From Candidatus Helarchaeota archaeon (lineage in GTDB: Archaea > Asgardarchaeota > Lokiarchaeia > Helarchaeales > RDOG01), in the NCBI GenBank assembly GCA_029838215.1, contig JALGVI010000075.1:1-16039 (forward strand): a stretch of DNA of 16,039 nt. Reading direction: 5' to 3'. The notes below the pieces were generated by a model. It worked only from the letters and a program-made list of their open reading frames with translations. It searched no databases and was not told the origin of the DNA. Shown here one piece after another: positions 857 through 14,629 of this stretch. A program made the position numbers and the translations under genes. Positions within the stretch are counted from its first letter, which is position 1; each line of letters begins with the position of its first letter.

Positions 857-2127
857 ATGACAAGAATAACGGATGACGAATATGGTAAGTTCATGTGGGA
901 TTCCATAAAGCAACTCTGCGATGATTTTGGTCCAAGACCTCCGACATCTGAGGCGGAGCGGCAAGCAGCACTATCTTACGAAAAAGAGTTAGGGAAGTAT
1001 TGCAACGAAACGGTTGTTGATACCTTCGAAACTCGTCCTAATGCATACCCTCAGGGTTTTGTCCGGCTTGTTGCCGTTATCTCGTGCTTGGCATTTTTCT
1101 TTTTTATATTCACGTTTCCATTTAACTTATTGACGATTCTTTTATGTATTCTCGGGTTGTGGATTTTTTATAGCACGCTTTTTCAGCAAAAAGAGTGGAT
1201 CCACGTTCTCTTCAAGAAAGAAAGCTCCCAAAACGTATTTGGAATTATCAAACCACAAAAAGCAACAAGAGTTCGCGTGCTTTTTGGCGGGGCGGCCACA
1301 TGGACTCGGCTTGGGAATCAGGAGTCGCCAAATTCGGTAAATCTCTCTTTATCATTACATTCGGTGGAGCAGCACTCATTCCGTATGCGATCGTTCTTTC
1401 AATAATCAAATCCGTGCAGGTAATTTTGGGACTTTCGTTCGTGAGTTTGTTTCCCATTACCATCACGATGAGTGATCTCATCTTTTTCATCCCTTTTTTT
1501 GGCGGTTGGTTTTGGTTACTAATTTATGTATTGCATGCTTGGGGAAAACGGACGAGAGCAACGCTCGGTGCAAACGATAATCTTTCAGGTGTCGCCATTT
1601 CTTTAGGTGTGGCTCGATATCTTCACGAACATCCTCTCAAAAACATCGAAGTTTGGTGCGGGGCATTTGGTTGTGAAGAATGCGGAGACCAAGGAAGCAA
1701 GGCATTCGTGGCGAAATATGGTGTTCAGGGAATCTTGGATGATGCACACGCTGTTATTCCCGAATCTTGTGGAGCAGGAAAAAAGATAATGATATGGAAG
1801 GGAGACAAGATGCACAAGACCGAATATATTGAAGACACGTATGAAAAGATGTTTCTTGCATATCGGAAAGTCAAAGATGAAAATCCAGACATGCTCGAAT
1901 GGCATTTGGGAATTCCACCATTTGGCTCCTCAGATGCATGTAGATTTGCTCAAAAAGGATACCGAACGACAACGATTTGTGGCATCGAAGACGAAATGAA
2001 GAGACCGAGTAATTGGCATGCCATTACCGACACGCCGGAGAATATCGATCCCACGACCCTCAAACAGGTTCTGGATGTTTGCTTGACTTTCCTTGAAATG
2101 CTCGATTCTGAAATGGATGACTCATGA
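857..2127 (+). pseudogene. M28-family membrane-anchored zinc peptidase, frameshifted by a 5-bp duplication (or an assembly error)
   Basis: The N-part (857 frame) has FGPRPPTSEAERQAA and a TM hairpin. The C-part (1195 frame) has HMDS, GANDNLSGVA, CEECG, PESCG and NWHAITDTPEN. Removing one GGCGG copy at 1286-1295 gives a single 421-aa ORF reading VLFGGHMDSAWE. Confidence 0.85.
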
Positions 2128-2864: not shown

Positions 2865-3992
2865 TCATCTTGTAAGCAAGATGGAATTCTCAACAAGAGA
2901 ACTTGGTTTTAGTCCATAATCAATGCCCGTGGAGATCATCTTCAGATCTTGGATTTCAAACTTTTTTTCGAGGAACAAACTGACCGGCATTACAATATTC
3001 AGTCGAAATCCCTTGTTTCGATTGATGAATTGTATTGCTTTTTTATAAAATGTTTTCTTAATGTTATGAGCAACGTCTGTTCCCGTGGGCTTTTCCTTCG
3101 TTGGGATGTCGAAAAAATCAATCCGATGAGGAAATCGTTTTCGAGTTATTGTGAATATCAACTCATCAATTGTTTTTATCGATATCAATTGCTCAATTAT
3201 GACTTTATTTGTTTGATAATAGCGAGGAAATATCAGTTCTTCCAATGTTTTTTGATCAAAATTCCATATTTTTCCTCTAAAGATGGAAATCAAGTTGTAA
3301 TATTCGGTGAATAGTAATAGAAATGGTTTTATCAGTCCTTGATTTTCCCAAGAAAGGCGGTCGAATTCATCCCAAAAACGCACGATTTGTGCCTTATCGA
3401 GAAATAAATCAAAAAATGCAAGTGATTTCGTCTTCGTTTCTTGCTGGTAGCCATTCTTCAAATATGGCGTGTATAACGAACCCGAATTCTCAAAAAGACG
3501 AATGACATCTTCAATCCTAGGGGCATTTAATGCCTGTTTAAATAGTTCGTCTCGTCCTAAAAATTCTTCAACTAGAAAATTAATGTCATCCTTGATTTGC
3601 TCTGATTTCAGGTTGAGTACCTTTGCCCTGAGGATCGTCTTGATGTTCTGAATTTCGAATTTCATCAAGAAAATTTCAAGAAAATCGTGATCTTGTTCGG
3701 GACTATTTCGTATGATCTTGAAGAAACAGCTCGACAGATTACTCTGAAATAGACGATGTATTTCGCCCAGACTTCTATACTGGTCTTTTTGCAATAATTC
3801 GGGAAAATTTGGAGAAATAATTTGCTTGAATTCAGATAGCGTTCTTGCGTGTGCGGCTCTTGAAAGATCACGGGTTGATGTTATCTTTTTTCTTTCAGAA
3901 GCAATAATCGGAGCTAAATAGGAGTAACACAGACCGGACTTCCGATTCTTTGGCAATCGAAATTCATTAGCAAGGCTCGAATTCTTTTGCAT
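2865..3992 (-). CDS. atpC: A/V-type ATPase subunit C (d/AC39 family)
   Basis: Contains KFEIQNIKTILRAK, FFDLFLDK, EYYNLISIFRGK and EIQDLKMISTG, typical of vATP-synt_AC39. I prefer the ATG at 3992, preceded by TGAGGAAATA 7 bp after the subunit H stop, over the TTG at 4022. It is last in the cluster. Confidence 0.88.
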   Translation of the reverse strand: MQKNSSLANEFRLPKNRKSGLCYSYLAPIIASERKKITSTRDLSRAAHARTLSEFKQIISPNFPELLQKDQYRSLGEIHRLFQSNLSSCFFKIIRNSPEQDHDFLEIFLMKFEIQNIKTILRAKVLNLKSEQIKDDINFLVEEFLGRDELFKQALNAPRIEDVIRLFENSGSLYTPYLKNGYQQETKTKSLAFFDLFLDKAQIVRFWDEFDRLSWENQGLIKPFLLLFTEYYNLISIFRGKIWNFDQKTLEELIFPRYYQTNKVIIEQLISIKTIDELIFTITRKRFPHRIDFFDIPTKEKPTGTDVAHNIKKTFYKKAIQFINRNKGFRLNIVMPVSLFLEKKFEIQDLKMISTGIDYGLKPSSLVENSILLTR

Positions 3993-3999
3993 TATTTCC

Positions 4000-4305
4000 T
4001 CAGATTCCTTTTCCAGTTTCAATTAATATTTCTTTAATGATTTCATCGATTAATTTATCCACGAGTGATTGCTCGAAAGATTCTTGGTCAATTTTTTTCA
4101 AATTGTCTTGGATTTTTATGTCAAGCCTTTTTCTTGCATCCTTTACGGCATTTTCTATCAGTTTTCTTGCATTTTCTCTTGCTTCTTCAACAGCTCGTTC
4201 AATTATTTTAGGGGCATTCTTTATTGCCGTTTGTATGATCTCTCTTTTTCGCTCCTCGGCTTTTTTTGATTTGTCTTCAGCGATTTTTTCCAGTTTTTCC
4301 ATCAT
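4000..4305 (-). CDS. atpH: A/V-type ATPase peripheral stalk subunit H (G)
   Basis: A 101-aa highly charged coiled coil with the A..II..A.EEA...A pattern, lying between I and C, with GGTGA upstream. Assignment rests on size, composition and context. Confidence 0.75.
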   Translation of the reverse strand: MMEKLEKIAEDKSKKAEERKREIIQTAIKNAPKIIERAVEEARENARKLIENAVKDARKRLDIKIQDNLKKIDQESFEQSLVDKLIDEIIKEILIETGKGI

Positions 4306-4344
4306 TTTTTTTATATCTTCACCAAAAATAAGTCATCACCTGAA

Positions 4345-6093
4345 TCATGAGTTCTTTTTTGATATTTTCAAGATAAAAGGGTGATATTCGGTTCCCTGAC
4401 CCTTGTAAAACTTGCTGAACCATTCATAAAAATGCAAACGGAGCGTGTGAATTGACACGAGAAATGCCTCTAACATTATGACTAAAATGTTTCCAACAAC
4501 CAAAATCGGAATGAAAATAAACGGATTCGTTATGAACATGAAAGCAATTATTATCACGACATGATTGAAACCAAAATGTATCAATAACAATGCGAAAATT
4601 CGGAAAAAAGAGACAATATTACTTAAAAACGATAGAAAAGTCTCCCAAACGTGAAGAATTGATTCGGATATAATTTTCTTGAAGGATTCACGCCTTAATT
4701 CTTGCGTGACTTTAAAAGCAGCCGCAATTGGCTTCCCGAGCAACAAAATTAGTAATGGAATCAAGATTAAGAGGATGGGTGGGAGAAAGAAGAACGTGAT
4801 TTGGGGAATCATCCAAGTAGTAAACTGCACGCCATAATTAAAAAACATGATACTGAAACCGATCACGAATAGGAGAGAGGGCAGGGATACTAGCCATGCA
4901 TCAATCTTTGCTGAGCTCTTGTAATTGTTGATGAATTGAAGAGTATATCCTAACGATAATATGATGAATCCCACGAAGAGAGAGAACTTGATTAAAAAAA
5001 TCAAGTTATTCGCGAGCCCTCCAAATTGATATTCAGGAAATAATTGAAGCATGGTCAAGGGGTTAAAGAGGAATTTTATCAATGGAGGCAAGCCAAAAAT
5101 GACTTCGGTTTCAAAGCCGAAGAATTCACCATATAAGAAACCTCCAAAAACACCTCCTATACCGCAATAACACAAGATTTTTGCAATTGTTCTTTTAGTT
5201 TTTAAAGCTAGGATTCCTGCGGCAATTGCAAGGCATATACCTTGCCCGATATCCCCAAACATGAATCCAAACATTAGAGGAAACGAAATCGTAAGCATGA
5301 ATGAGGGATCAACCTCGTTAGCATTGGGAACACCATACAATTTAGTTATGGTTTCGAATGGTTTTACAAGGTTTGAGTGCTTTAATACGGTCGGAATTGT
5401 TTCGTTTCCGAGTTGCTCCTTGCTCAGAACGATCATCTGATAATGATTGTTCGTGACTTTTTTAATGACCTGTTCATATTTGTTGATTTCTTTTTTGGGA
5501 ATCCAACATTCCATTATGGCAATGAATTGATTCCCACCAGATTTCAGAGAAGCGTCTAAAAAATGAATAATGTCATTCAACATTTTATTAAAGGCTTTCA
5601 ATTCTAGGTAATATTTTTTCGCCAATTTGTTGACACTTTCAATGAATTCTTCTTTTCGTTTCTCGATTTCTTCTATGTTATGAATTACAACCTGATCAGT
5701 ATCAATTTCAATTTTGATTTGGTTAGAAACTTCTTTTTCAATGAGAATTTCGGCTTCTTCCAAATCTTGTAATTCTTTATCAATTTCATCGACTTTTTCT
5801 TTGACTCTGGTTAAGAAATTTACCAAATCTTCTTTTTTAAAAGAAATATCTTCAATCTGCTCTTGTCCGTCTTCAATATTGATATCTCTCATGTCAAACT
5901 TTTCAAGAAGGCGAAGAATGTGTGTATTTACACTATTAAATTCATCGAGCATCATTGTATCGGGGTCTTTAACGGTCAAATCCTTACGGACTCTCGTCAA
6001 TTGACAAATTCCGAGAGCTCCAACTTCCAACACGACATCGTCTAGCAAGCGCTTATTGAATACAGTTATTACTTTTTTCATTATTACGGTCAT
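4345..6093 (-). CDS. atpI: A/V-type ATPase subunit I (a)
   Basis: Contains PTVL...KPFETITKLYGVP...EVDP, FGFMFGDIGQG, GFLYGEFFG, SFFRIFAL (essential Arg) and HTLRLHFYEWFSKFYKG. There is a GAGGA SD before the ATG at 6093. Confidence 0.95.
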   Translation of the reverse strand: MTVIMKKVITVFNKRLLDDVVLEVGALGICQLTRVRKDLTVKDPDTMMLDEFNSVNTHILRLLEKFDMRDINIEDGQEQIEDISFKKEDLVNFLTRVKEKVDEIDKELQDLEEAEILIEKEVSNQIKIEIDTDQVVIHNIEEIEKRKEEFIESVNKLAKKYYLELKAFNKMLNDIIHFLDASLKSGGNQFIAIMECWIPKKEINKYEQVIKKVTNNHYQMIVLSKEQLGNETIPTVLKHSNLVKPFETITKLYGVPNANEVDPSFMLTISFPLMFGFMFGDIGQGICLAIAAGILALKTKRTIAKILCYCGIGGVFGGFLYGEFFGFETEVIFGLPPLIKFLFNPLTMLQLFPEYQFGGLANNLIFLIKFSLFVGFIILSLGYTLQFINNYKSSAKIDAWLVSLPSLLFVIGFSIMFFNYGVQFTTWMIPQITFFFLPPILLILIPLLILLLGKPIAAAFKVTQELRRESFKKIISESILHVWETFLSFLSNIVSFFRIFALLLIHFGFNHVVIIIAFMFITNPFIFIPILVVGNILVIMLEAFLVSIHTLRLHFYEWFSKFYKGQGTEYHPFILKISKKNS

Positions 6094-6147
6094 TTTATTC
6101 CTCTAATCGGAAAAATTTTTGAAAATATTGGAGAATCCCCGTGTGTT

Positions 6148-6166
6148 TTCCGCCTTGAAGGTGGAA
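6148..6166. repeat. Near-perfect 19-bp palindrome between K and I
   Basis: TTCCGCCTT-G-AAGGTGGAA; 8 of 9 arm positions pair. Confidence 0.55.
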
Positions 6167-6186
6167 TTAAAGACTCGATTAAGAAT

Positions 6187-6531
6187 TTATAGAATGATCA
6201 ATAACAACGCAACGATCAACCCATAAATAGCAATTGCTTCTGCCATTGAAACAATCAAGAGAGATATCGTAAAGCTTTTTTCAGATTCAACACTTGCACT
6301 AATAGCGGCAGCACCGATTTTACTCATTGCATATCCTGCACCAATACCACTCAATCCCACGCATAAAGCTACTGCAATGGGGAAAAATGGTCCTGACTTA
6401 TCTATCACTGTTGCTTGAGATAAATGAACGCTATATGCAACAGAAACAGAGATCAGTAAAGCATTGGTAACCATGACTAATAAGACTAAAAGAGAAATTA
6501 TGACGAATGCTTTTCTTGTTTTTATTTGCAT
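6187..6531 (-). CDS. atpK: A/V-type ATPase proteolipid subunit K (c), single hairpin with an N-terminal leader
   Basis: Contains GLSGIGAGYAMSKIGAAAI and SMAEAIAIYGLIVALLL with the conserved ion-binding Glu. An extra basic+hydrophobic N-terminal segment precedes the hairpin. Confidence 0.95.
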   Translation of the reverse strand: MQIKTRKAFVIISLLVLLVMVTNALLISVSVAYSVHLSQATVIDKSGPFFPIAVALCVGLSGIGAGYAMSKIGAAAISASVESEKSFTISLLIVSMAEAIAIYGLIVALLLIIL

Positions 6532-6577
6532 TTAAAATACTTCCGTTTCACCAAATAATTTTGAAATATTCATCTGT

Positions 6578-6645
6578 TAATGATTTGCACATATTTTGAG
6601 TATTTGTGTGAGAATCATTAGATCTTACTTCATTTTTTTATTAAA
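6578..6645 (-). promoter_or_regulatory. Putative internal promoter/operator upstream of K-I-H-C
   Basis: Within the 139-bp gap, minus-strand TTTAATAA (6645-6638) is followed by a perfect 8-bp inverted repeat, TAATGATT-N27-AATCATTA (6578-6620). Confidence 0.35.
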
Positions 6646-6670
6646 TTTTTCCATCTAGGATTTGAGCTGG

Positions 6671-7105
6671 TCAATTTACTACCAAAACGGGAACCTTTGT
6701 CATTTCAATTATGTACTTCGTAACGGATCCCATTGCATGTGCCATAATCGTTTTCCGATGGCTACGATGACCGACAATGATCAAATCGGCTTTGATAACA
6801 CTACTGTATTGAAGGATAATTTGTCCAGGATATCCTTCAACGATCTTGCCCGTAAATTTTATGCCGTTTTTCTTACAAAGGTTTTCTAACCAACTCATAT
6901 TCGCAACGCCTTTTTCCATGAACTCCTGTTTTACTTCGTGTCCCGTTTTTTCAGAAATCTTTGAAATGTCTTCAATGATATCTTCATCAATGACAAAGAT
7001 ACCATAAATCTCAGATTTACATGTTCTGGAGAGTTTAATTGCAAGTTGTGCCGAACGAAACGAATGCGATGAACCATCAAATGGTACTAATATTTTTTTG
7101 AACAT
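6671..7105 (-). CDS. Universal stress protein (USP family, single domain)
   Basis: Contains MFKKILVPFDGS.HS..A, G.P...I, ADLIIVG and GSVT..II....VPVLVV. It starts 8 bp after the subunit D stop. Confidence 0.95.
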   Translation of the reverse strand: MFKKILVPFDGSSHSFRSAQLAIKLSRTCKSEIYGIFVIDEDIIEDISKISEKTGHEVKQEFMEKGVANMSWLENLCKKNGIKFTGKIVEGYPGQIILQYSSVIKADLIIVGHRSHRKTIMAHAMGSVTKYIIEMTKVPVLVVN

Positions 7106-7113
7106 GACAAAAC

Positions 7114-7758
7114 CTACTTGAATTTTTTAACTTCTTCAATCAATCTTGCGGCATTTTTTATAATTGTCAATTCATCACGGTCCAATTCTTCTAAATAATT
7201 GTCCAAATAGGTTATAGTTTCATCATAATCAGGAATAATTTTGAATTCAAGAGCATTTAATCGTTTTGTTGTTTTTGAGATTTCAGCCGCTAATCGAAAA
7301 ATTCCATTTTCAATTCCTGCCAACTGAACTAATTTTAAAAGTGCATCCCGGAAATTTTCTTCCACGGCATCTAGATGGATGCTCGTGCGGAAAAAACCAT
7401 AATCGGGGAAATCCTTTCCAGAAGTTTCTGTAATAATAATGTCAGGTACTACAATTCCCATAAAACTTTGCTCATGAAGTTCCATCTTGATAAAAGAACG
7501 TTGAGAACTATCCGCCAATCGGTTCATTTCATCCAATCCCATTTCAATATTAACGAGCTCAAGTGCTTTAAAACCCTTCGCCATGAGGTCCTCGAGATCG
7601 GTCCTCAATTTTTTGGCTTCAATCTTGAGTTCCTTTAACTTCTGAATCAGGACAGTCCGTTTTTCATCAAGGAGTTGATGGGCTTTTTTCAAGAAATTTA
7701 GATCCTTGTTTAGCTCAAGCAAGAAACCTTGTGTAGGGTTTACTTTCAAGATGGTCAT
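7114..7758 (-). CDS. atpD: A/V-type ATPase rotor subunit D
   Basis: Contains VNPTQGFLLEL...AHQLLDEKR and EISKTTKRLNALEFKIIP....I..L.ELDRDE; 214 aa. Confidence 0.96.
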   Translation of the reverse strand: MTILKVNPTQGFLLELNKDLNFLKKAHQLLDEKRTVLIQKLKELKIEAKKLRTDLEDLMAKGFKALELVNIEMGLDEMNRLADSSQRSFIKMELHEQSFMGIVVPDIIITETSGKDFPDYGFFRTSIHLDAVEENFRDALLKLVQLAGIENGIFRLAAEISKTTKRLNALEFKIIPDYDETITYLDNYLEELDRDELTIIKNAARLIEEVKKFK

Positions 7759-7779
7759 TAATATCAGTCTTTTTTCATT

Positions 7780-9183
7780 CTAAATATGTTTGTCGGGAGG
7801 AACTTTTCCCAACCGATAATATTTCTCAATGTATTCATCCTTTATCCGAGTTAATTCCGTGTCAGGAATTGTACTGATGACATCCCAACCAACATCTAAT
7901 GTATCAATAAAGTTTCTATTTTCATTCAACCCCTGCTTGATATATCGCTGGATGAATAATTCATTAAATTTAAGATATTGTCTATCAAGTTGAGAAAGTT
8001 CGTCTGCACCAATAATATTAGCTAGAGATTCAACTTCCTTTGCTTTTGCATACGCTGCATATAATTGACTTGCCAAATCTGCGTGGTCCTCCCGAGTAAG
8101 ACCTTTTCCAATACCAGATTTCATTAATCGCGATAGTGAAGAGAGAATATCAATGGGAGGATATACTCCAGCCATGTGAAGCCCACGGTCCAATGTTATT
8201 TGACCTTCCGTGATGTATCCAGTTAAATCAGGAATGGGATGACCGATGTCATCATTGGGCATTGTTAAGATAGGGATTTGGGTGATTGTCCCTTTTTTCC
8301 CTTTAATCCGACCTGCTCGTTCGTAAATGGATGCCAAATCGGTATATAGATAACCAGGGTATCCTTTTCTACTAGGAATTTCGCCTTTGGCAGATGAAAC
8401 TTCTCTCAATGCTTCAGCATAACTTGTCATGTCAGTTAAGATGACTAAAACGTGCATGTCTTTTTTGAATGCCAGGTATTCTGCAACGGTTAAAGCGATT
8501 CTCGGAGTTATTAATCGTTCCGTGGGCGGGTCTTCGGCGAGATTTAAAAACATAACCACGTCTTTAAATGCGCCCGATTTTTCAAAATTCGTTTTAAAGA
8601 AATCGGCAGTGGCATGTTTTAGCCCCATTGCTGCAAAAACGACAACGAATTGCTCTTTCTTTTCTATGATTGTTGCTTGACGTGCAATTTGAGCAGCCAA
8701 TTCAGAATGTGGAAGACCTGCACCCGAGAAAATCGGCAATTTTTGTCCCCGGACTAGTGTATTGAGTCCATCTATTCCCGAGATTCCTGTCTGAATTGAT
8801 TCGCGGGGGTATTCTCGCGAAATGGGGTTTATCGGACTTGAGTTTATGTCCCGGAGTTCACCGTGCGTGATTTCGGATCCACCATCAATGGGCTTACCAA
8901 ATCCATTGAATATTCTCCCGAGCATTTTTTCAGAAACTCGAACCTCCAAGGGTTTTCCGTGGAATCGAACGCTTGTTTCAGATAGAGAAAGTCCAGAAGT
9001 TCCCGTAAAAACTTCAATCATCACGTACTTGATGCCAGCTTCGAGCACCCGCCCATATCGGATGTTACCATCAATACCTCGAATTTCTGCAATGTCATCA
9101 TATCCAACGTCAATGGCACCTTCAAGAAAAATTAAAGGACCTTGAACCTTAGATACGCCTTTATAGATAAGATATTCGCTCAT
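7780..9183 (-). CDS. atpB: A/V-type ATPase subunit B
   Basis: Contains [69 protein letters not shown] and SLSRLM. I prefer the ATG at 9183 (MSEYL), 1 bp after the subunit A stop, over 9210. Confidence 0.98.
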
Positions 9184-9184
9184 T

Positions 9185-11047
9185 TTATAGTTCACTCCCA
9201 GTAGCATCATAAAACTTACGTTTCTTAATTTCTAATTCGACCCTTTCTCGTTCAATATCTCCCAATTCTTCAAATACCTTGTTTCGTAAATCTTCTATCA
9301 AATCTAAATCATCATTTGGGATTGTCGACTTCATTTTTTCTAACTCTATAATAAACGGTAAAGAGATGACTCGATAAATGGGAACTCGATTTTCAATTAA
9401 TCTTTTTTGAGTGAAATCATAGAAATCAATGATTAATTTTAACATTTTATATTGTTTTTCAGGAGGAGAGTGACAATCCACGGGATCGTATGCGTTTTGG
9501 TTAAGAAAACCATCCTTTATCATGTCACCAACACGTAATATCAATCTTTGAGAGTCAGGTAATGCTTCCATGCCAATCAATTTAACGATTCGTTTGAGTT
9601 CATTCGTTTTTTGCAAGATCGAAATGGCTTTATCGTGATATTCCTTCCAGTCAGAAGAAATATTATCTTGCCACCACTCGGCAACTTGTAATATGTTTTC
9701 AGAATAACTTTGAGTCCAATTGATTGCAGGATAATGCCGGGCATAAGCCAAGTCCTTGTCTAAAGCCCAAAAAACTTCAATTAATTTCTTGGTATTTACG
9801 ACCACGGGGTCCGAAAAATCAGAAGATGGAGGAGAAACAGCACCAATGGCAGTAACGGAACCAGTCTGTTCTTCACCTCCTGATCGCATCACGACCACGT
9901 TTCCCGCTCGCTCATAAAACTCTGCCAAACGCGATGGCAGGTAAGAAGGATAACCGCGTTCTGCAGGAATCTCGTCAAGTCGCCCTGACAATTCCCTCAA
10001 TGCTTCTGCCCATCGGCTCGTGGAATCAGCCATCAGGGCAACATCATACCCCATGTCTCGATAATATTCGGCCATGGTGATTCCCGTGTAAATCGATGCT
10101 TCTCTTGCAGATACAGGCATGTTTGACGTATTCGCGATCAATATCATTCTGTCCATTAGATGTCGTCCTGTTTTGGGATCTGTTAGGCTCGGAAATTCTT
10201 CCAGAATCTCTGCCATCTCATTTCCCCGTTCACCACACCCGATGTAAATGATCACGTCTGCCGCCACCCACTTAGCAAGACTTTGAAGTGTCACGGTTTT
10301 TCCCGAACCGAAACCTCCAGGAATCGCAGCCGCTCCACCATATGTTATTGGAAAAAAAGTATCGATCACGCGATGTCCCGTGATTAACAGCTTATCGTTT
10401 AATAATCTTCTTTTGAAAGGGCGAGGGGTTCTGACGGGCCAATCATGAGTCAATCCTAAATTTATAACAGAACTTTGACTTGAAATACCAAAAGTGCTGC
10501 CAGAAGTCCCTCTAAGTCGAAGAATTTCATCTTTAATTGTATATTCACCTTCAACCGTGACCCACTCAACTTTACCTTCAATCCCGGGCGGTATCATTAT
10601 TCGATGTTCAAAAAAATCATTTTCAAGAACCGTTCCTATTATATCTCCGCCCGAAACACGATCTTCGTTTTTTAACAGGGGTTTAAAATGCCATTTCTTT
10701 TTAGAAGAAAGTGGTTCAGTCGTTGCACCTCGCTTAATGAATGCACCCATTGCTTCCATTATTTGAGGTAACGGTCGTTGGATTCCATCAAACACGCTCC
10801 CTAGCAATCCTGGACCTAAAGTGACACTTAAGGGTTTATCGGTTGTTATGATCGTATCCCCGGGTTTCAAACCACTTGTCTCTTCATATACTTGAACATA
10901 GATCACGTCATTTTCTAACTTTATGATTTCACCTATGAGCTTCTCGGGACCGACACCAACAATCTCGTGCATTTTTGTATTCCGTAATTCTTCACCATAT
11001 CCTTTAATCAAAGGACCTGAAACCCAAATTACTTTACCCTGTGCCAT
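9185..11047 (-). CDS. atpA: A/V-type ATPase catalytic subunit A (no intein)
   Basis: Contains Walker [54 protein letters not shown] and RHYPAINW. The 620-aa ORF is continuous. Confidence 0.98.
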
Positions 11048-11051
11048 CTTT

Positions 11052-11759
11052 TTAGTCTTCCTCCCACAATCGAGTTGAGAAAAAGTTAAGAATATAATCC
11101 CTATGAACGCTAAGAATTGTTTCTATTCGTTTATCGAATGTAAGTGAATCATCAGCCGTCTTGATCAGGACTCCACCCATTGAATCGGGATCTGCATCCA
11201 GGATCTCGAATTCCAAACCATATTTTTCCTGCAAGGAATCGAGGAATTCCCGCGTGATGAGTTCTTTATCGTTTCTTCGCAAGTAAATCATTAGCCTTTT
11301 ATCCTTGTTGATTCGCAATATTCCGGAAGCATCAACACCATAATATTGCTGAAACACGACCAACTCTTGATTTTCAATTCGATCTTGCAAGATTTGGGTG
11401 ATGTTTTTAACACCTTCTTGAATGAATTTTTCTAAAACTTTCTTATATTCGGGCGTTGTCGTGAAATGCTTTATTTTTTGATTCAGCCGTTGATAAATAT
11501 CATCCAACAATTTAGCGCGATGGTTTAAAATTGCTCTTTTTATTTGAATCTCAGCCAATGACTCCAAACGTCGCACCTGTGTTCGTGCTTCTTCTTTTGC
11601 CTTCTTCATGATCTGGTTTATTTTTTCATTTGCCTCTTCTTCTGCTGATGAGATTATCTTTTTGGCTTGTTTTTCCCCTTCTTTAATGATCAGTAAAGCT
11701 TTTTCTTCTAACTCTTGTAAAACGCTACTATAAACGGGATTTGTATTCTTTTTTTCCAT
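11052..11759 (-). CDS. atpE: A/V-type ATPase peripheral stalk subunit E
   Basis: A long N-terminal coiled coil is followed by Y..VL.KFI.EG and MGGVLI.T.D..LTFD. I prefer the ATG at 11759, with GGTG upstream, over the GTG at 11768. Confidence 0.9.
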   Translation of the reverse strand: MEKKNTNPVYSSVLQELEEKALLIIKEGEKQAKKIISSAEEEANEKINQIMKKAKEEARTQVRRLESLAEIQIKRAILNHRAKLLDDIYQRLNQKIKHFTTTPEYKKVLEKFIQEGVKNITQILQDRIENQELVVFQQYYGVDASGILRINKDKRLMIYLRRNDKELITREFLDSLQEKYGLEFEILDADPDSMGGVLIKTADDSLTFDKRIETILSVHRDYILNFFSTRLWEED

Positions 11760-11777
11760 TTCACACACCGTTCATTC

Positions 11778-12080
11778 TCAGATCCTGAAACCAATGGCTG
11801 ATTTAATGGTATGTTCGAGAGCAAGATAGTCTCTCGGTCCACTCCGATCAGGCACTTCGATAATTAAGGGTATCCGCTTTGTCGTTTTAATTTTATTAAT
11901 ATAGGTTTGTAAGTCTTCATAGATCTTTTCAGTGATGATTAAAATGCCAAAATCTTCTTTTAACAAAAAGGAATTGATTAATTGGCGTGCTTCCCGCTTG
12001 CCGGAAATTATCGTGCCGGGAACCCCCACAAGCTTAAATCCAATGACCGTATCTCTGTCTCCAATGACGTGGATCCACAT
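11778..12080 (-). CDS. atpF: A/V-type ATPase subunit F
   Basis: Contains I.VIGDRDTVIGFKLVGV, FGILIITE and PLIIEVPD; 100 aa. It is the first gene of the cluster. Confidence 0.96.
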   Translation of the reverse strand: MWIHVIGDRDTVIGFKLVGVPGTIISGKREARQLINSFLLKEDFGILIITEKIYEDLQTYINKIKTTKRIPLIIEVPDRSGPRDYLALEHTIKSAIGFRI

Positions 12081-12865: not shown

Positions 12866-14629
12866 ATGCGTGATTGTCTGGAAATGGTTCTTAAAAAAGC
12901 CAAGGAAAGGCTACAACACGGCATTTACCATCATAGATTTCTGTTAATGGTTTTATTATCCATTCTAGTGGGAATTATAGGCGGCTTGGGTGCAGTTATT
13001 TTTAGACTAATGGTAATATTAAATCAATTCTTATTTAGCATTATTCCCACCATTTTTGGACCGGTTTTCATTTTTCTAATGCCAACGATAGGAGGTTTGC
13101 TTGCGGGAATTCTCATCTCTAAGTTGGGAAAAGAAACAAAAGGAAATGGAGTTCCCGAAATAATGGAAGCCATGGCATTAAAAGGAGGACGTATCAGGAA
13201 AAGAGTTGCTCCCTTGAAAATTCTAGTTTCCAGCATTACGATTGGTTCGGGAGGATCTGCAGGTAGAGAGGGTCCAATTGCACAAATAGGGGCAAGTAGT
13301 GGTTCAACAATCGCTCAGATTACAAGGCTTGATGAGAACAACACGAAAATCTTGGTGGCGTGCGGGACAGCAGCAGGAATTGCAGCAACATTCAATGCCC
13401 CCTTTGGTGGACTTCTGTTTGGAATCGAAGTAATATTGAGCATGACCAGACTAAATGCCAAGATCTTGATCAACATGGTGATCTCTGTTATCGTGGCAAA
13501 TTTCATTTCAATCTTATTTCTGGGTAATAATCCTGCATTCATCATCGGACAGACTTTCGCCTTTGTCAATCCATTCGAAATCTTTCTATATTTTCTTTTT
13601 GGCGTCATAATGGGCTTTTTTGGCATCTTTTGGGTCAAATTTCTTTATTTTTTTGAAAGGAAATTCGATAGCTTGAAAATTCCCGATTATCTTAAATCCA
13701 CAATTGGTGGTTTAGGAGTTGGCTTGATAGGCATTTTTTTCAGCACGCAAGTGATGGGAGTGGGCTATCCGACAATTGAACTGACACTGATAGGGAGCAT
13801 ACCATTTTGGTTTCTTCTGCCGCTCAGTCTCTTTAAGATGGTAGTCACATCGCTAACGATAGGAAGTGGCGGTAGCGGAGGTGTATTTGCTTCATCTCTT
13901 TTCATAGGTGCCACGTTTGGAGGATTCATCGGAGTGCTTTTTTTCTTGGGTTTTCCGGGTCTGGTTTCACAACCAATGGCTTATGCCCTGGTAGGAATGG
14001 GTGCCTTATTCGCAGGAGTCGCACGTTCTCCATTAACTTGCATTATCATGACAATTGAGATGACATCAGACTACTTGCTGATCATTCCATTAATGACTAG
14101 CTGCATCACGAGTTACATGATAAATGCCGTCGTCATGAAAGATGAAAACATATACACAAAAAAACTATTGAATAGAGGAATTAGAATAAAATATAACTTC
14201 TATACAGACATATACGATGACATAGAAGTTGGGGAAATAATGACAAGGAAAGTCGTCACGATTGGAGAAGATGTAAGCGTTGCAGACGTGCTGAAAATGA
14301 TGGAAATGGATAAACACATGGGTTACCCTGTCGTGAATGATAAAGGAGAATTTGTCGGATTTATAGCATTTGAAAACGTGAGAAAAGCCGTTTTGCAAGG
14401 AAATCAGGACTTGCTCATTAAGGACATATGCAATCGCAAGCTCATCGTATTATTTGAAGACGATACGATTCACGAAGCAATGATTAAGATGTTGCGGCAT
14501 AATGTGGTCATGTTGCCCGTCGTCGATAGAGAAAAACCAACAAATTTGATCGGATTAATCTCACGGTTCGACGTGATGAGAGCCCACGAACTCGAGTCGA
14601 TGAAATTGCAACTAGAAAAAAGAGAATGA
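12866..14629 (+). CDS. ClC (EriC-type) chloride channel / Cl-:H+ antiporter family protein with a C-terminal CBS pair
   Basis: Contains GNGVPE, GSAGREGP, FNAPFGG..F.IE, GGVFAS and NIYT, then VGEIM...V, GYPVV and LPVVD...LIGLISRFD (two CBS domains). An alternative start is the ATG at 12884. Confidence 0.96.
   Translation: MRDCLEMVLKKAKERLQHGIYHHRFLLMVLLSILVGIIGGLGAVIFRLMVILNQFLFSIIPTIFGPVFIFLMPTIGGLLAGILISKLGKETKGNGVPEIMEAMALKGGRIRKRVAPLKILVSSITIGSGGSAGREGPIAQIGASSGSTIAQITRLDENNTKILVACGTAAGIAATFNAPFGGLLFGIEVILSMTRLNAKILINMVISVIVANFISILFLGNNPAFIIGQTFAFVNPFEIFLYFLFGVIMGFFGIFWVKFLYFFERKFDSLKIPDYLKSTIGGLGVGLIGIFFSTQVMGVGYPTIELTLIGSIPFWFLLPLSLFKMVVTSLTIGSGGSGGVFASSLFIGATFGGFIGVLFFLGFPGLVSQPMAYALVGMGALFAGVARSPLTCIIMTIEMTSDYLLIIPLMTSCITSYMINAVVMKDENIYTKKLLNRGIRIKYNFYTDIYDDIEVGEIMTRKVVTIGEDVSVADVLKMMEMDKHMGYPVVNDKGEFVGFIAFENVRKAVLQGNQDLLIKDICNRKLIVLFEDDTIHEAMIKMLRHNVVMLPVVDREKPTNLIGLISRFDVMRAHELESMKLQLEKRE

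Follow-up and report, generated by a model that had tools for sequence, protein, structure and literature searches.

Introduction

Inhibitors and switches of rotary ATPases include bacterial epsilon, mitochondrial IF1, Paracoccus zeta, and subunit H of the eukaryotic V-ATPase. How the prokaryotic V/A-type ATPases avoid wasting ATP, or match their activity to the state of the cell, is poorly understood, and we know of no dedicated protein regulator for these enzymes. A second body of work concerns universal stress proteins (USPs). The prototype ATP-binding archaeal USP is MJ0577 of Methanocaldococcus jannaschii (PDB 1mjh), for which we know of no link to an ATPase operon. Operon-encoded USP regulators of transport systems, in turn, are already known. 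According to the account of Schweikhard et al. (2010) given in PMC12159084, TeaD is the USP of the teaABCD operon of Halomonas elongata and regulates the TeaABC transporter. The USP Rv2623 partners the ABC transporter Rv1747 (PMC5549992), and the N-terminal USP domain of KdpD (PDB 7ji4) binds c-di-AMP.

Here we describe a USP gene embedded in an A/V-ATPase cluster of an Asgard archaeon. An earlier note on this DNA had read the USP as an energy-sensing brake or assembly switch dedicated to the ATPase, a reading that our analysis partly supports, and had regarded such a system as uncharacterized. We likewise found no paper on the subject: USPs in V/A-ATPase operons are described neither in the full-text literature searched nor in a 2025 review of archaeal USPs, and the V/A-ATPase-linked USP lineage is undescribed in that literature.

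The locus most resembles teaABCD. Like the USP described here, TeaD (PDB 3hgm) is a small single-domain USP whose gene is a final or internal member of a transport-system operon, and both proteins are presumed to regulate the transporter in question. The present gene lies 8 nt past atpD with K-I-H-C downstream. The partner differs, being a TRAP transporter for TeaD and a rotary A/V-ATPase here. The same account has TeaD binding ATP and passing from dimer to tetramer with the nucleotide (PMC12159084), whereas the corresponding loop of our USP is non-canonical. KdpD and the Rv2623-Rv1747 pair are similar in that a USP module serves as the cytoplasmic regulatory element of membrane transport; they are, however, fused domains or partners in interaction assays, within P-type and ABC systems, while the present USP is encoded by a gene of its own within the operon of a rotary ATPase. 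Epsilon, IF1, zeta, and subunit H are small proteins that restrain or tune a rotary ATPase, which is the role proposed for this USP, but none of them is a USP and there is no sequence or fold relationship.

Organization of the ATPase cluster

The window, by which we mean the whole 16,039-nucleotide stretch analyzed, carries a complete A/V-type ATPase cluster on the minus strand, with the gene order F-E-A-B-D-USP-K-I-H-C (Table 1). Subunit H is the weakest assignment, with a sub-cut-off match to TIGR02926 AhaH (E = 5.4e-4) and a match to PF00430 at E = 6.4e-4. The genes upstream of and including the USP are tightly coupled, as had been noted earlier, with intergenic distances of 9 nt (F-E), 4 nt (E-A), -26 nt (A-B), 21 nt (B-D), and 8 nt (D-USP). 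The atpD stop codon is TAG at 7116-7114 and the USP ATG occupies 7105-7103, leaving a gap of exactly 8 nt on the same strand, again as the earlier note had it. That note had placed the USP at 6671-7113. The first of these coordinates holds, but the reading frame reaches only to 7105 and the second therefore takes in the spacer. Nor does the USP close the F-E-A-B-D block, as had been proposed, since K-I-H-C continue downstream on the same strand.

Table 1. Features of the A/V-ATPase cluster and its USP gene in the window
Feature	Position	Strand	Evidence
USP, Usp family, 144 aa	6671..7105	-	Pfam PF00582, ATG start
Spacer, 8 nt, atpD stop to USP ATG	7106..7113	-	Direct sequence reading
A/V-ATPase subunit D (central rotor stalk), atpD	7114..7758	-	PF01813 E 5.6e-45; TIGR00309
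A/V-ATPase subunit B	7780..9210	-	PF00006, PF22919, PF02874
A/V-ATPase catalytic subunit A	9185..11047	-	TIGR01043 E 5.9e-248; Walker A GGFGSGKT + GERGNE
A/V-ATPase subunit E	11052..11768	-	PF01991 E 4.3e-18
A/V-ATPase subunit F	11778..12080	-	PF01990 E 6.1e-22
USP-K spacer, 139 nt	6532..6670	-	Direct sequence reading
A/V-ATPase proteolipid subunit K (c)	6187..6531	-	PF00137 E 4e-16; NF004888
A/V-ATPase subunit I (a)	4345..6093	-	PF01496 E 5.1e-33; NF004434 E 6.8e-63
Probable subunit H (peripheral stalk, coiled coil)	4000..4305	-	Weak: TIGR02926 AhaH, PF00430
A/V-ATPase subunit C (d)	2865..4022	-	PF01992 E 1.6e-33; TIGR02923

The 144-residue product matches the Usp profile PF00582 with 81.1 bits (cut-off 24, E = 1.5e-22), residues 1-143 aligning to profile positions 1-140 of 141. 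It has no other Pfam match and no homology to the nine A/V-ATPase subunit families, and NCBIfam holds no specific model for USPs of this kind, offering weak UspA/E/F/G-type matches far under cut-off. The USP thus lies outside the nine canonical subunits, as the earlier note had stated. All nine are encoded by the other genes of the cluster, which rules out the USP as a stand-in for a missing stalk subunit. The host genome (3.6 Mb in 170 contigs, 94% complete) contains no other Usp-family match.

The A/T-rich 139-nt spacer between USP and K might contain an internal archaeal promoter. Reading this spacer by eye showed no T-rich tract immediately behind the stop codon of the USP. The corresponding spacer measures 124 nt in a relative whose USP is 73% identical. 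In four genomes of the same order it is only ~9-48 nt long, which indicates that the USP gene is internal to the operon.

Three further features were observed in the window and its genome. Divergent from the ATPase cluster lies a gene (window 12866-14629, plus strand; NF002505 E = 5e-89) for a ClC-type chloride channel/exchanger whose C terminus carries CBS domains. At 857-2127 (plus strand), the overlapping reading frames 857-1405 and 1195-2127 look like a single gene split by a frameshift. The host genome also encodes a full-length actin (PF00022 E = 3.7e-132, 441 bits) and a second actin-family protein (E = 6.2e-54), located at G000:C49:28764-29873 and G000:C23:32873-33991. The presence of actin makes the host very probably a member of the Asgard archaea.

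Protein fold and the ATP loop

The AF2 model of the window USP, calculated from an alignment of 40 linked USPs, has a pLDDT of 91 and a pTM of 0.85, with low confidence at residues ~113-125. All 50 of the top 50 Foldseek matches are USPs. TeaD is the best match (E = 1.1e-9, TM 0.74) at a sequence identity of ~21%, accompanied by MJ0577, which has the same fold (TM 0.81) and is alignable to the window USP over its whole length (E = 6.9e-6). The KdpD domain is a more distant structural match.

The ATP-binding subclass of USPs, the MJ0577 or UspFG type, is marked by the motif G-2x-G-9x-G-(S/T), which forms a phosphate-binding loop (PMC12159084). In MJ0577 the motif runs G127-SH-G130-x9-G140-S. 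The window USP does not conform, reading G112-HR-S115-x10-G126-S127; relative to MJ0577 it carries a 2-residue insertion, and the second Gly is replaced by either Ser or Arg, the HMMER alignment placing Arg there. The window USP preserves the N-terminal D-G-S as well as the Val that follows strand 2.

Similar losses recur in what we define here as the pump-linked USP group, that is, the USPs of V/A-ATPase or H+-pyrophosphatase (H+-PPase) operons. USPs of the window's order have an invariant His after the first position of the motif and are missing the second Gly. Those of family f4, in the same class, have lost the first Gly and end the motif in G-H, and the spirochaete proteins read G-G-x-S...S-E. 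The canonical motif is intact in generic USPs and in the other Asgard paralogues. At the level of sequence, then, every pump-linked group has a degraded form of G-x2-G-x9-G-(S/T), and the form differs from group to group. In place of the motif is a loop with many His, Arg, and Lys residues, at the stretch that the model predicts with low confidence.

The earlier note had based energy sensing on adenine-nucleotide binding. With the canonical motif broken here and in every pump-linked group, energy sensing through ATP is unsupported as claimed, and classical ATP binding by the pump-linked USPs finds no support in their sequences. According to a review, degenerate USP motifs can retain a pocket (PMC12159084). 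Another ligand, or a protein contact, is possible. Co-folding of D, F, and the USP, each supplied as an alignment, returned a score of 0.00, which we count neither for nor against an interaction. A search for longer forms recovered tandem USPs and unrelated fusions only, and no fusion of a USP to an ATPase subunit.

Conservation in the window's order and class

Seven species-level genomes of the window's order were sampled, five of which hold atpD. All five feature B-D-USP-K-I on a single strand with spacers of a few to ~50 nt, and their USPs are 26-38% identical to the window USP. The two genomes that have no USP are also missing atpD; they are 82% and 88% complete, so that both genes probably lie on unassembled DNA. 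The metagenomic relative with the 73% identical USP shows the order F-E-A-B-D-USP-K.

A profile built from the USPs of the order alone was searched against 151 genomes of the class, and its best matches share contig and strand with atpD. The position of the USP varies. Outside the window's order the cluster is laid out as K-C-H-F-E-A-B-D-I. In family f6 the USP directly follows D (D-USP-I). In family f4, at least five genomes place it behind I plus a small zinc-ribbon membrane protein (D-I-[TM protein]-USP), and at least five after a second A-subunit paralogue, A2 (D-I-[TM protein]-A2-USP). No USP was detected within 9 kb downstream of atpD in ~113 further genomes of the class, where the gene pattern is mostly D-I-A2 (59) or D-I (44). 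The gene is missing from most f4 operons and from 13/13 sampled f5 operons. Within the class, the USP is universal in the window's order and patchy in the others, yet linked to the cluster at varying position. The earlier note had named absence from related operons as a finding that would speak against it. Such absence is real in the ~113 other clusters of the class, but does not extend to the order itself, with the gene present in 5/5 genomes that hold atpD.

Members of the pump-linked group are also found away from the ATPase. Three f4 genomes carry one directly downstream of a membrane H+-PPase (PF03030, E = 2.7e-228). In one of these loci the pump gene spans L345:2226-4331 and the USP L345:1731-2213; the others are L031 and L048. 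In two f6 genomes, group members occupy unrelated contexts.

Several features of the ATPases themselves were recorded. The gene order of the window (2865-12080), F-E-A-B-D-USP-K-I-H-C, is that of its order and differs from the rest of the class (L052-L063). The B subunit of the window is 55-60% identical to bacterial V-type B subunits, versus 50-54% to those of family f4, and the B-subunit tree joins the two Asgard groups weakly (62). The A2 paralogue of family f4 (L055:12168-13985 in genome G133) occurs in ~65 other genomes of the class. It is encoded after subunit I and the small TM zinc-ribbon protein and is ~42-46% identical to the window A subunit. The one copy examined keeps Walker A and is missing GERGNE.

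Bacterial operons and the EIIA gene

The 80 nearest relatives of the window B subunit in the genome collection come mostly from bacterial V-type operons, at 55-60% identity; close Asgard relatives are not among the 80 loci returned. In 22 of these 80 loci, arranged as C-I-K-F-E-A-B-D-USP, a USP comes immediately after D, and the two frames often overlap by 4 nt. Such loci occur in Spirochaetaceae, Sphaerochaeta, Treponema, Pleomorphochaeta, Limnochordia, Omnitrophota, and Ratteibacteria. The linked gene is the sole USP match in one Treponema and one Omnitrophota genome.

Spirochaetota were surveyed in an even sample of 301 genomes, with matches at E <= 1e-20 in 132 and at about E <= 1e-30 in 61. 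Among the top 30 loci, 29 show B-D-USP and the remaining one is cut at a contig end. Ranks 31-61 contribute another 27 with A-B-D-USP, plus one further just below, so that ~57/301 genomes carry A-B-D-USP. Weaker USP matches show no ATPase linkage. Counting genomes with a USP at atpD had been suggested in the earlier note, and the counts come out in its favor: 5/5 atpD-holding genomes in the order, 22/80 B-subunit loci, and ~57/301 Spirochaetota.

A generic set of 80 USP loci, mostly bacterial, was retrieved with the window USP as query and used for comparison. ATPase genes are nearby at only one, a Bathyarchaeia contig with E-F-A-B-D-x-USP-I-K. This locus (L069:2114-11046, CAYWPD010000006.1) has ~1 kb between D and the USP and represents another archaeal lineage. 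Its USP is a long branch outside the pump-linked group and has Arg for the second Gly of the ATP motif.

Immediately downstream of the bacterial USP, a PTS EIIA-2 gene of PtsN type (PF00359, E ~1e-31 to 1e-35) is usually present in the same orientation. The succession is found in 16/22 bacterial operons that have the USP and at 19 of the top 30 Spirochaetota loci; examples are L196:8444-8959, L205:8536-9006, and L165:8484-8999, and more than 30 other bacterial loci have the gene. None of the USP-less operons compared contains it. At two spirochaete loci (L384, L395), the USP-EIIA pair occurs without ATPase genes. PtsN-type proteins regulate K+ transport systems through direct binding. The PtsN-like gene usually follows the USP and is never seen in the USP-less operons, and the tail of the operon therefore looks like a regulatory or signaling add-on.

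Phylogenetic congruence

In a quick maximum-likelihood tree of 146 USPs, the ATPase-linked proteins (7 from the order, 12 from f4, 1 from f6, and 21 bacterial) all fall to the same side of a single branch (SH-aLRT 85). A more careful unrooted tree (LG+C20, 108 rows) defines a side of 47 rows, with UFBoot 96 / SH-aLRT 89, which contains the window USP and all 44 pump-linked rows. The other three rows come from two f6 genomes and represent two distinct sequences. Across the split lie 19 other Asgard USP paralogues and the nearest generic USPs.

The B subunits of 95 operons were compared in a quick unrooted LG+G4 tree. The comparison set was picked by similarity to the window, and USP-less operons of the window's class were left out. 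A branch with 97% SH-aLRT separates 40 rows from 55 USP-less operons, the latter from Clostridia, Atribacterota, WOR-3, Desulfurococcales, and others. All 37 operons that bear a USP are among the 40 rows, the rest being one long-branch Ruminococcus and two loci cut off before D. As judged from these two trees, the pump-linked USP group is congruent with the ATPase B-subunit tree. The earlier note's expectation that linked USPs form a clade matching the ATPase tree was thus borne out, by UFBoot 96 / SH-aLRT 89 on the USP side and by the 97% branch on the other.

Role of the USP

Chance adjacency is ruled out by the counts, with the gene in place in 5/5 same-order genomes that hold atpD, 22/80 B-subunit loci, and ~57/301 Spirochaetota versus 1/80 among generic USPs. 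The linkage to the ATPase is probably functional, as far as genomic context can indicate. It is conserved across two domains and withstands rearrangement, and it involves a dedicated lineage that agrees with the pump tree and supplies the sole USP of several genomes; together these observations argue strongly for a functional tie to the pump. The lineage travels, it appears, with primary ion-pump operons. Among Asgard archaea, Spirochaetota, and a few other bacteria it accompanies V/A-ATPases, and in some Asgard genomes the H+-PPase.

We judge it an even call that the window USP is a dedicated, non-structural accessory protein or modulator of the rotary A/V-ATPase, and this reading from context is the one that we favor. 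The protein would be a small cytoplasmic USP-fold protein, probably a dimer as other USPs are, and presumably co-transcribed with the genes of the A1 head and rotor. It may act after translation in the manner of TeaD, tuning the activity or the coupling of the pump to the cell's state, by inhibition or by activation and without fixed stoichiometry. The glycine-rich ATP loop appears to have been recast as a basic loop rich in His, Arg, and Lys, so that any ligand sensing would not be canonical ATP binding. The degraded motif counts against the modulator reading in that it takes away the simplest mechanism of sensing. An obligatory structural subunit is argued against by the gene content of related clusters: ~113 clusters of the same class have no USP, and the protein is hence dispensable for that type of enzyme. 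The neighbor of the USP gene also varies (D, A2, the small TM zinc-ribbon protein, or the H+-PPase), which speaks against one fixed docking subunit. Together with the absence from most f4 and from 13 f5 operons and the recruitment to the H+-PPase, this variation favors a non-stoichiometric modulator.

Three other explanations have to be weighed against a modulator. The USP could be a co-expressed passenger, a general stress protein that profits from the strong expression of the ATPase operon, serves other targets, and has no direct effect on the pump. The gene is missing from most operons of the class, group members also lie behind the H+-PPase and in unrelated contexts in two f6 genomes, and the USP-EIIA pair is away from the ATPase at two spirochaete loci, all of which suits a passenger; as the only USP of its genome, the protein would moreover take on any general USP role. 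We nevertheless consider this somewhat unlikely, because the linkage persists across archaeal and bacterial phyla and through several rearrangements, stop and start codons overlap in many bacteria, the linked USPs group in a separate clade that agrees with the tree of the B subunit, and generic USPs are near ATPase genes in 1/80. A role in assembly or stability, with the USP acting as a chaperone for the A1 head and rotor or for the membrane sector without regulating rate, appears quite unlikely. Most related ATPases assemble without a USP, the EIIA(Ntr)-type companion gene of bacteria indicates signaling, and the link to the structurally unrelated H+-PPase is hard to square with a specific assembly role. 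Such a role would fit the placement of the gene immediately past A-B-D, with translational coupling, and the loss of the ATP loop would suit non-enzymatic binding. Chaperone activity is on record for some USPs.

An ATP/ADP-sensing brake, in which nucleotide binding at the classical site blocks rotation at low energy, was closest to the original proposal and strikes us as highly improbable. The protein retains the USP fold together with the N-terminal D-G-S and the conserved Val following strand 2, the nearest structures, MJ0577 and TeaD, bind ATP, and a brake on hydrolysis could benefit fermentative hosts. The motif, however, reads G-x2-S-x10-G-S, and the pump-linked groups all differ in how it is degraded, while generic USPs and the Asgard paralogues have it intact; the loop is also the only low-confidence part of the AF2 model. 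A bolder version of the modulator reading makes the USP a tenth component of one V/A-ATPase lineage (that of Asgard archaea, Spirochaetota, Omnitrophota/Ratteibacteria, and Limnochordia), which would dock to the enzyme and gate ATP hydrolysis or coupling in response to a signal received via the basic loop, in bacteria together with EIIA. We regard this as unlikely.

Implications

As a conserved addition to the operon, the USP gene occurs in ~1/5 of the Spirochaetota sampled and, within one Asgard order, in all ATPase operons recovered, and it belongs to a USP lineage that has, in its entirety, abandoned the classical ATP loop. Culturable spirochaetes, among them the Pleomorphochaeta isolate of locus L195, carry A-B-D-USP, which makes genetics and biochemistry feasible on a concrete candidate regulator. 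If the proposed link is true, rotary ATPases and H+-pyrophosphatases join the transport systems that use USP modules. Should the docking and gating version also be true, the USP would be the prokaryotic V/A-type counterpart of IF1, epsilon, or subunit H.
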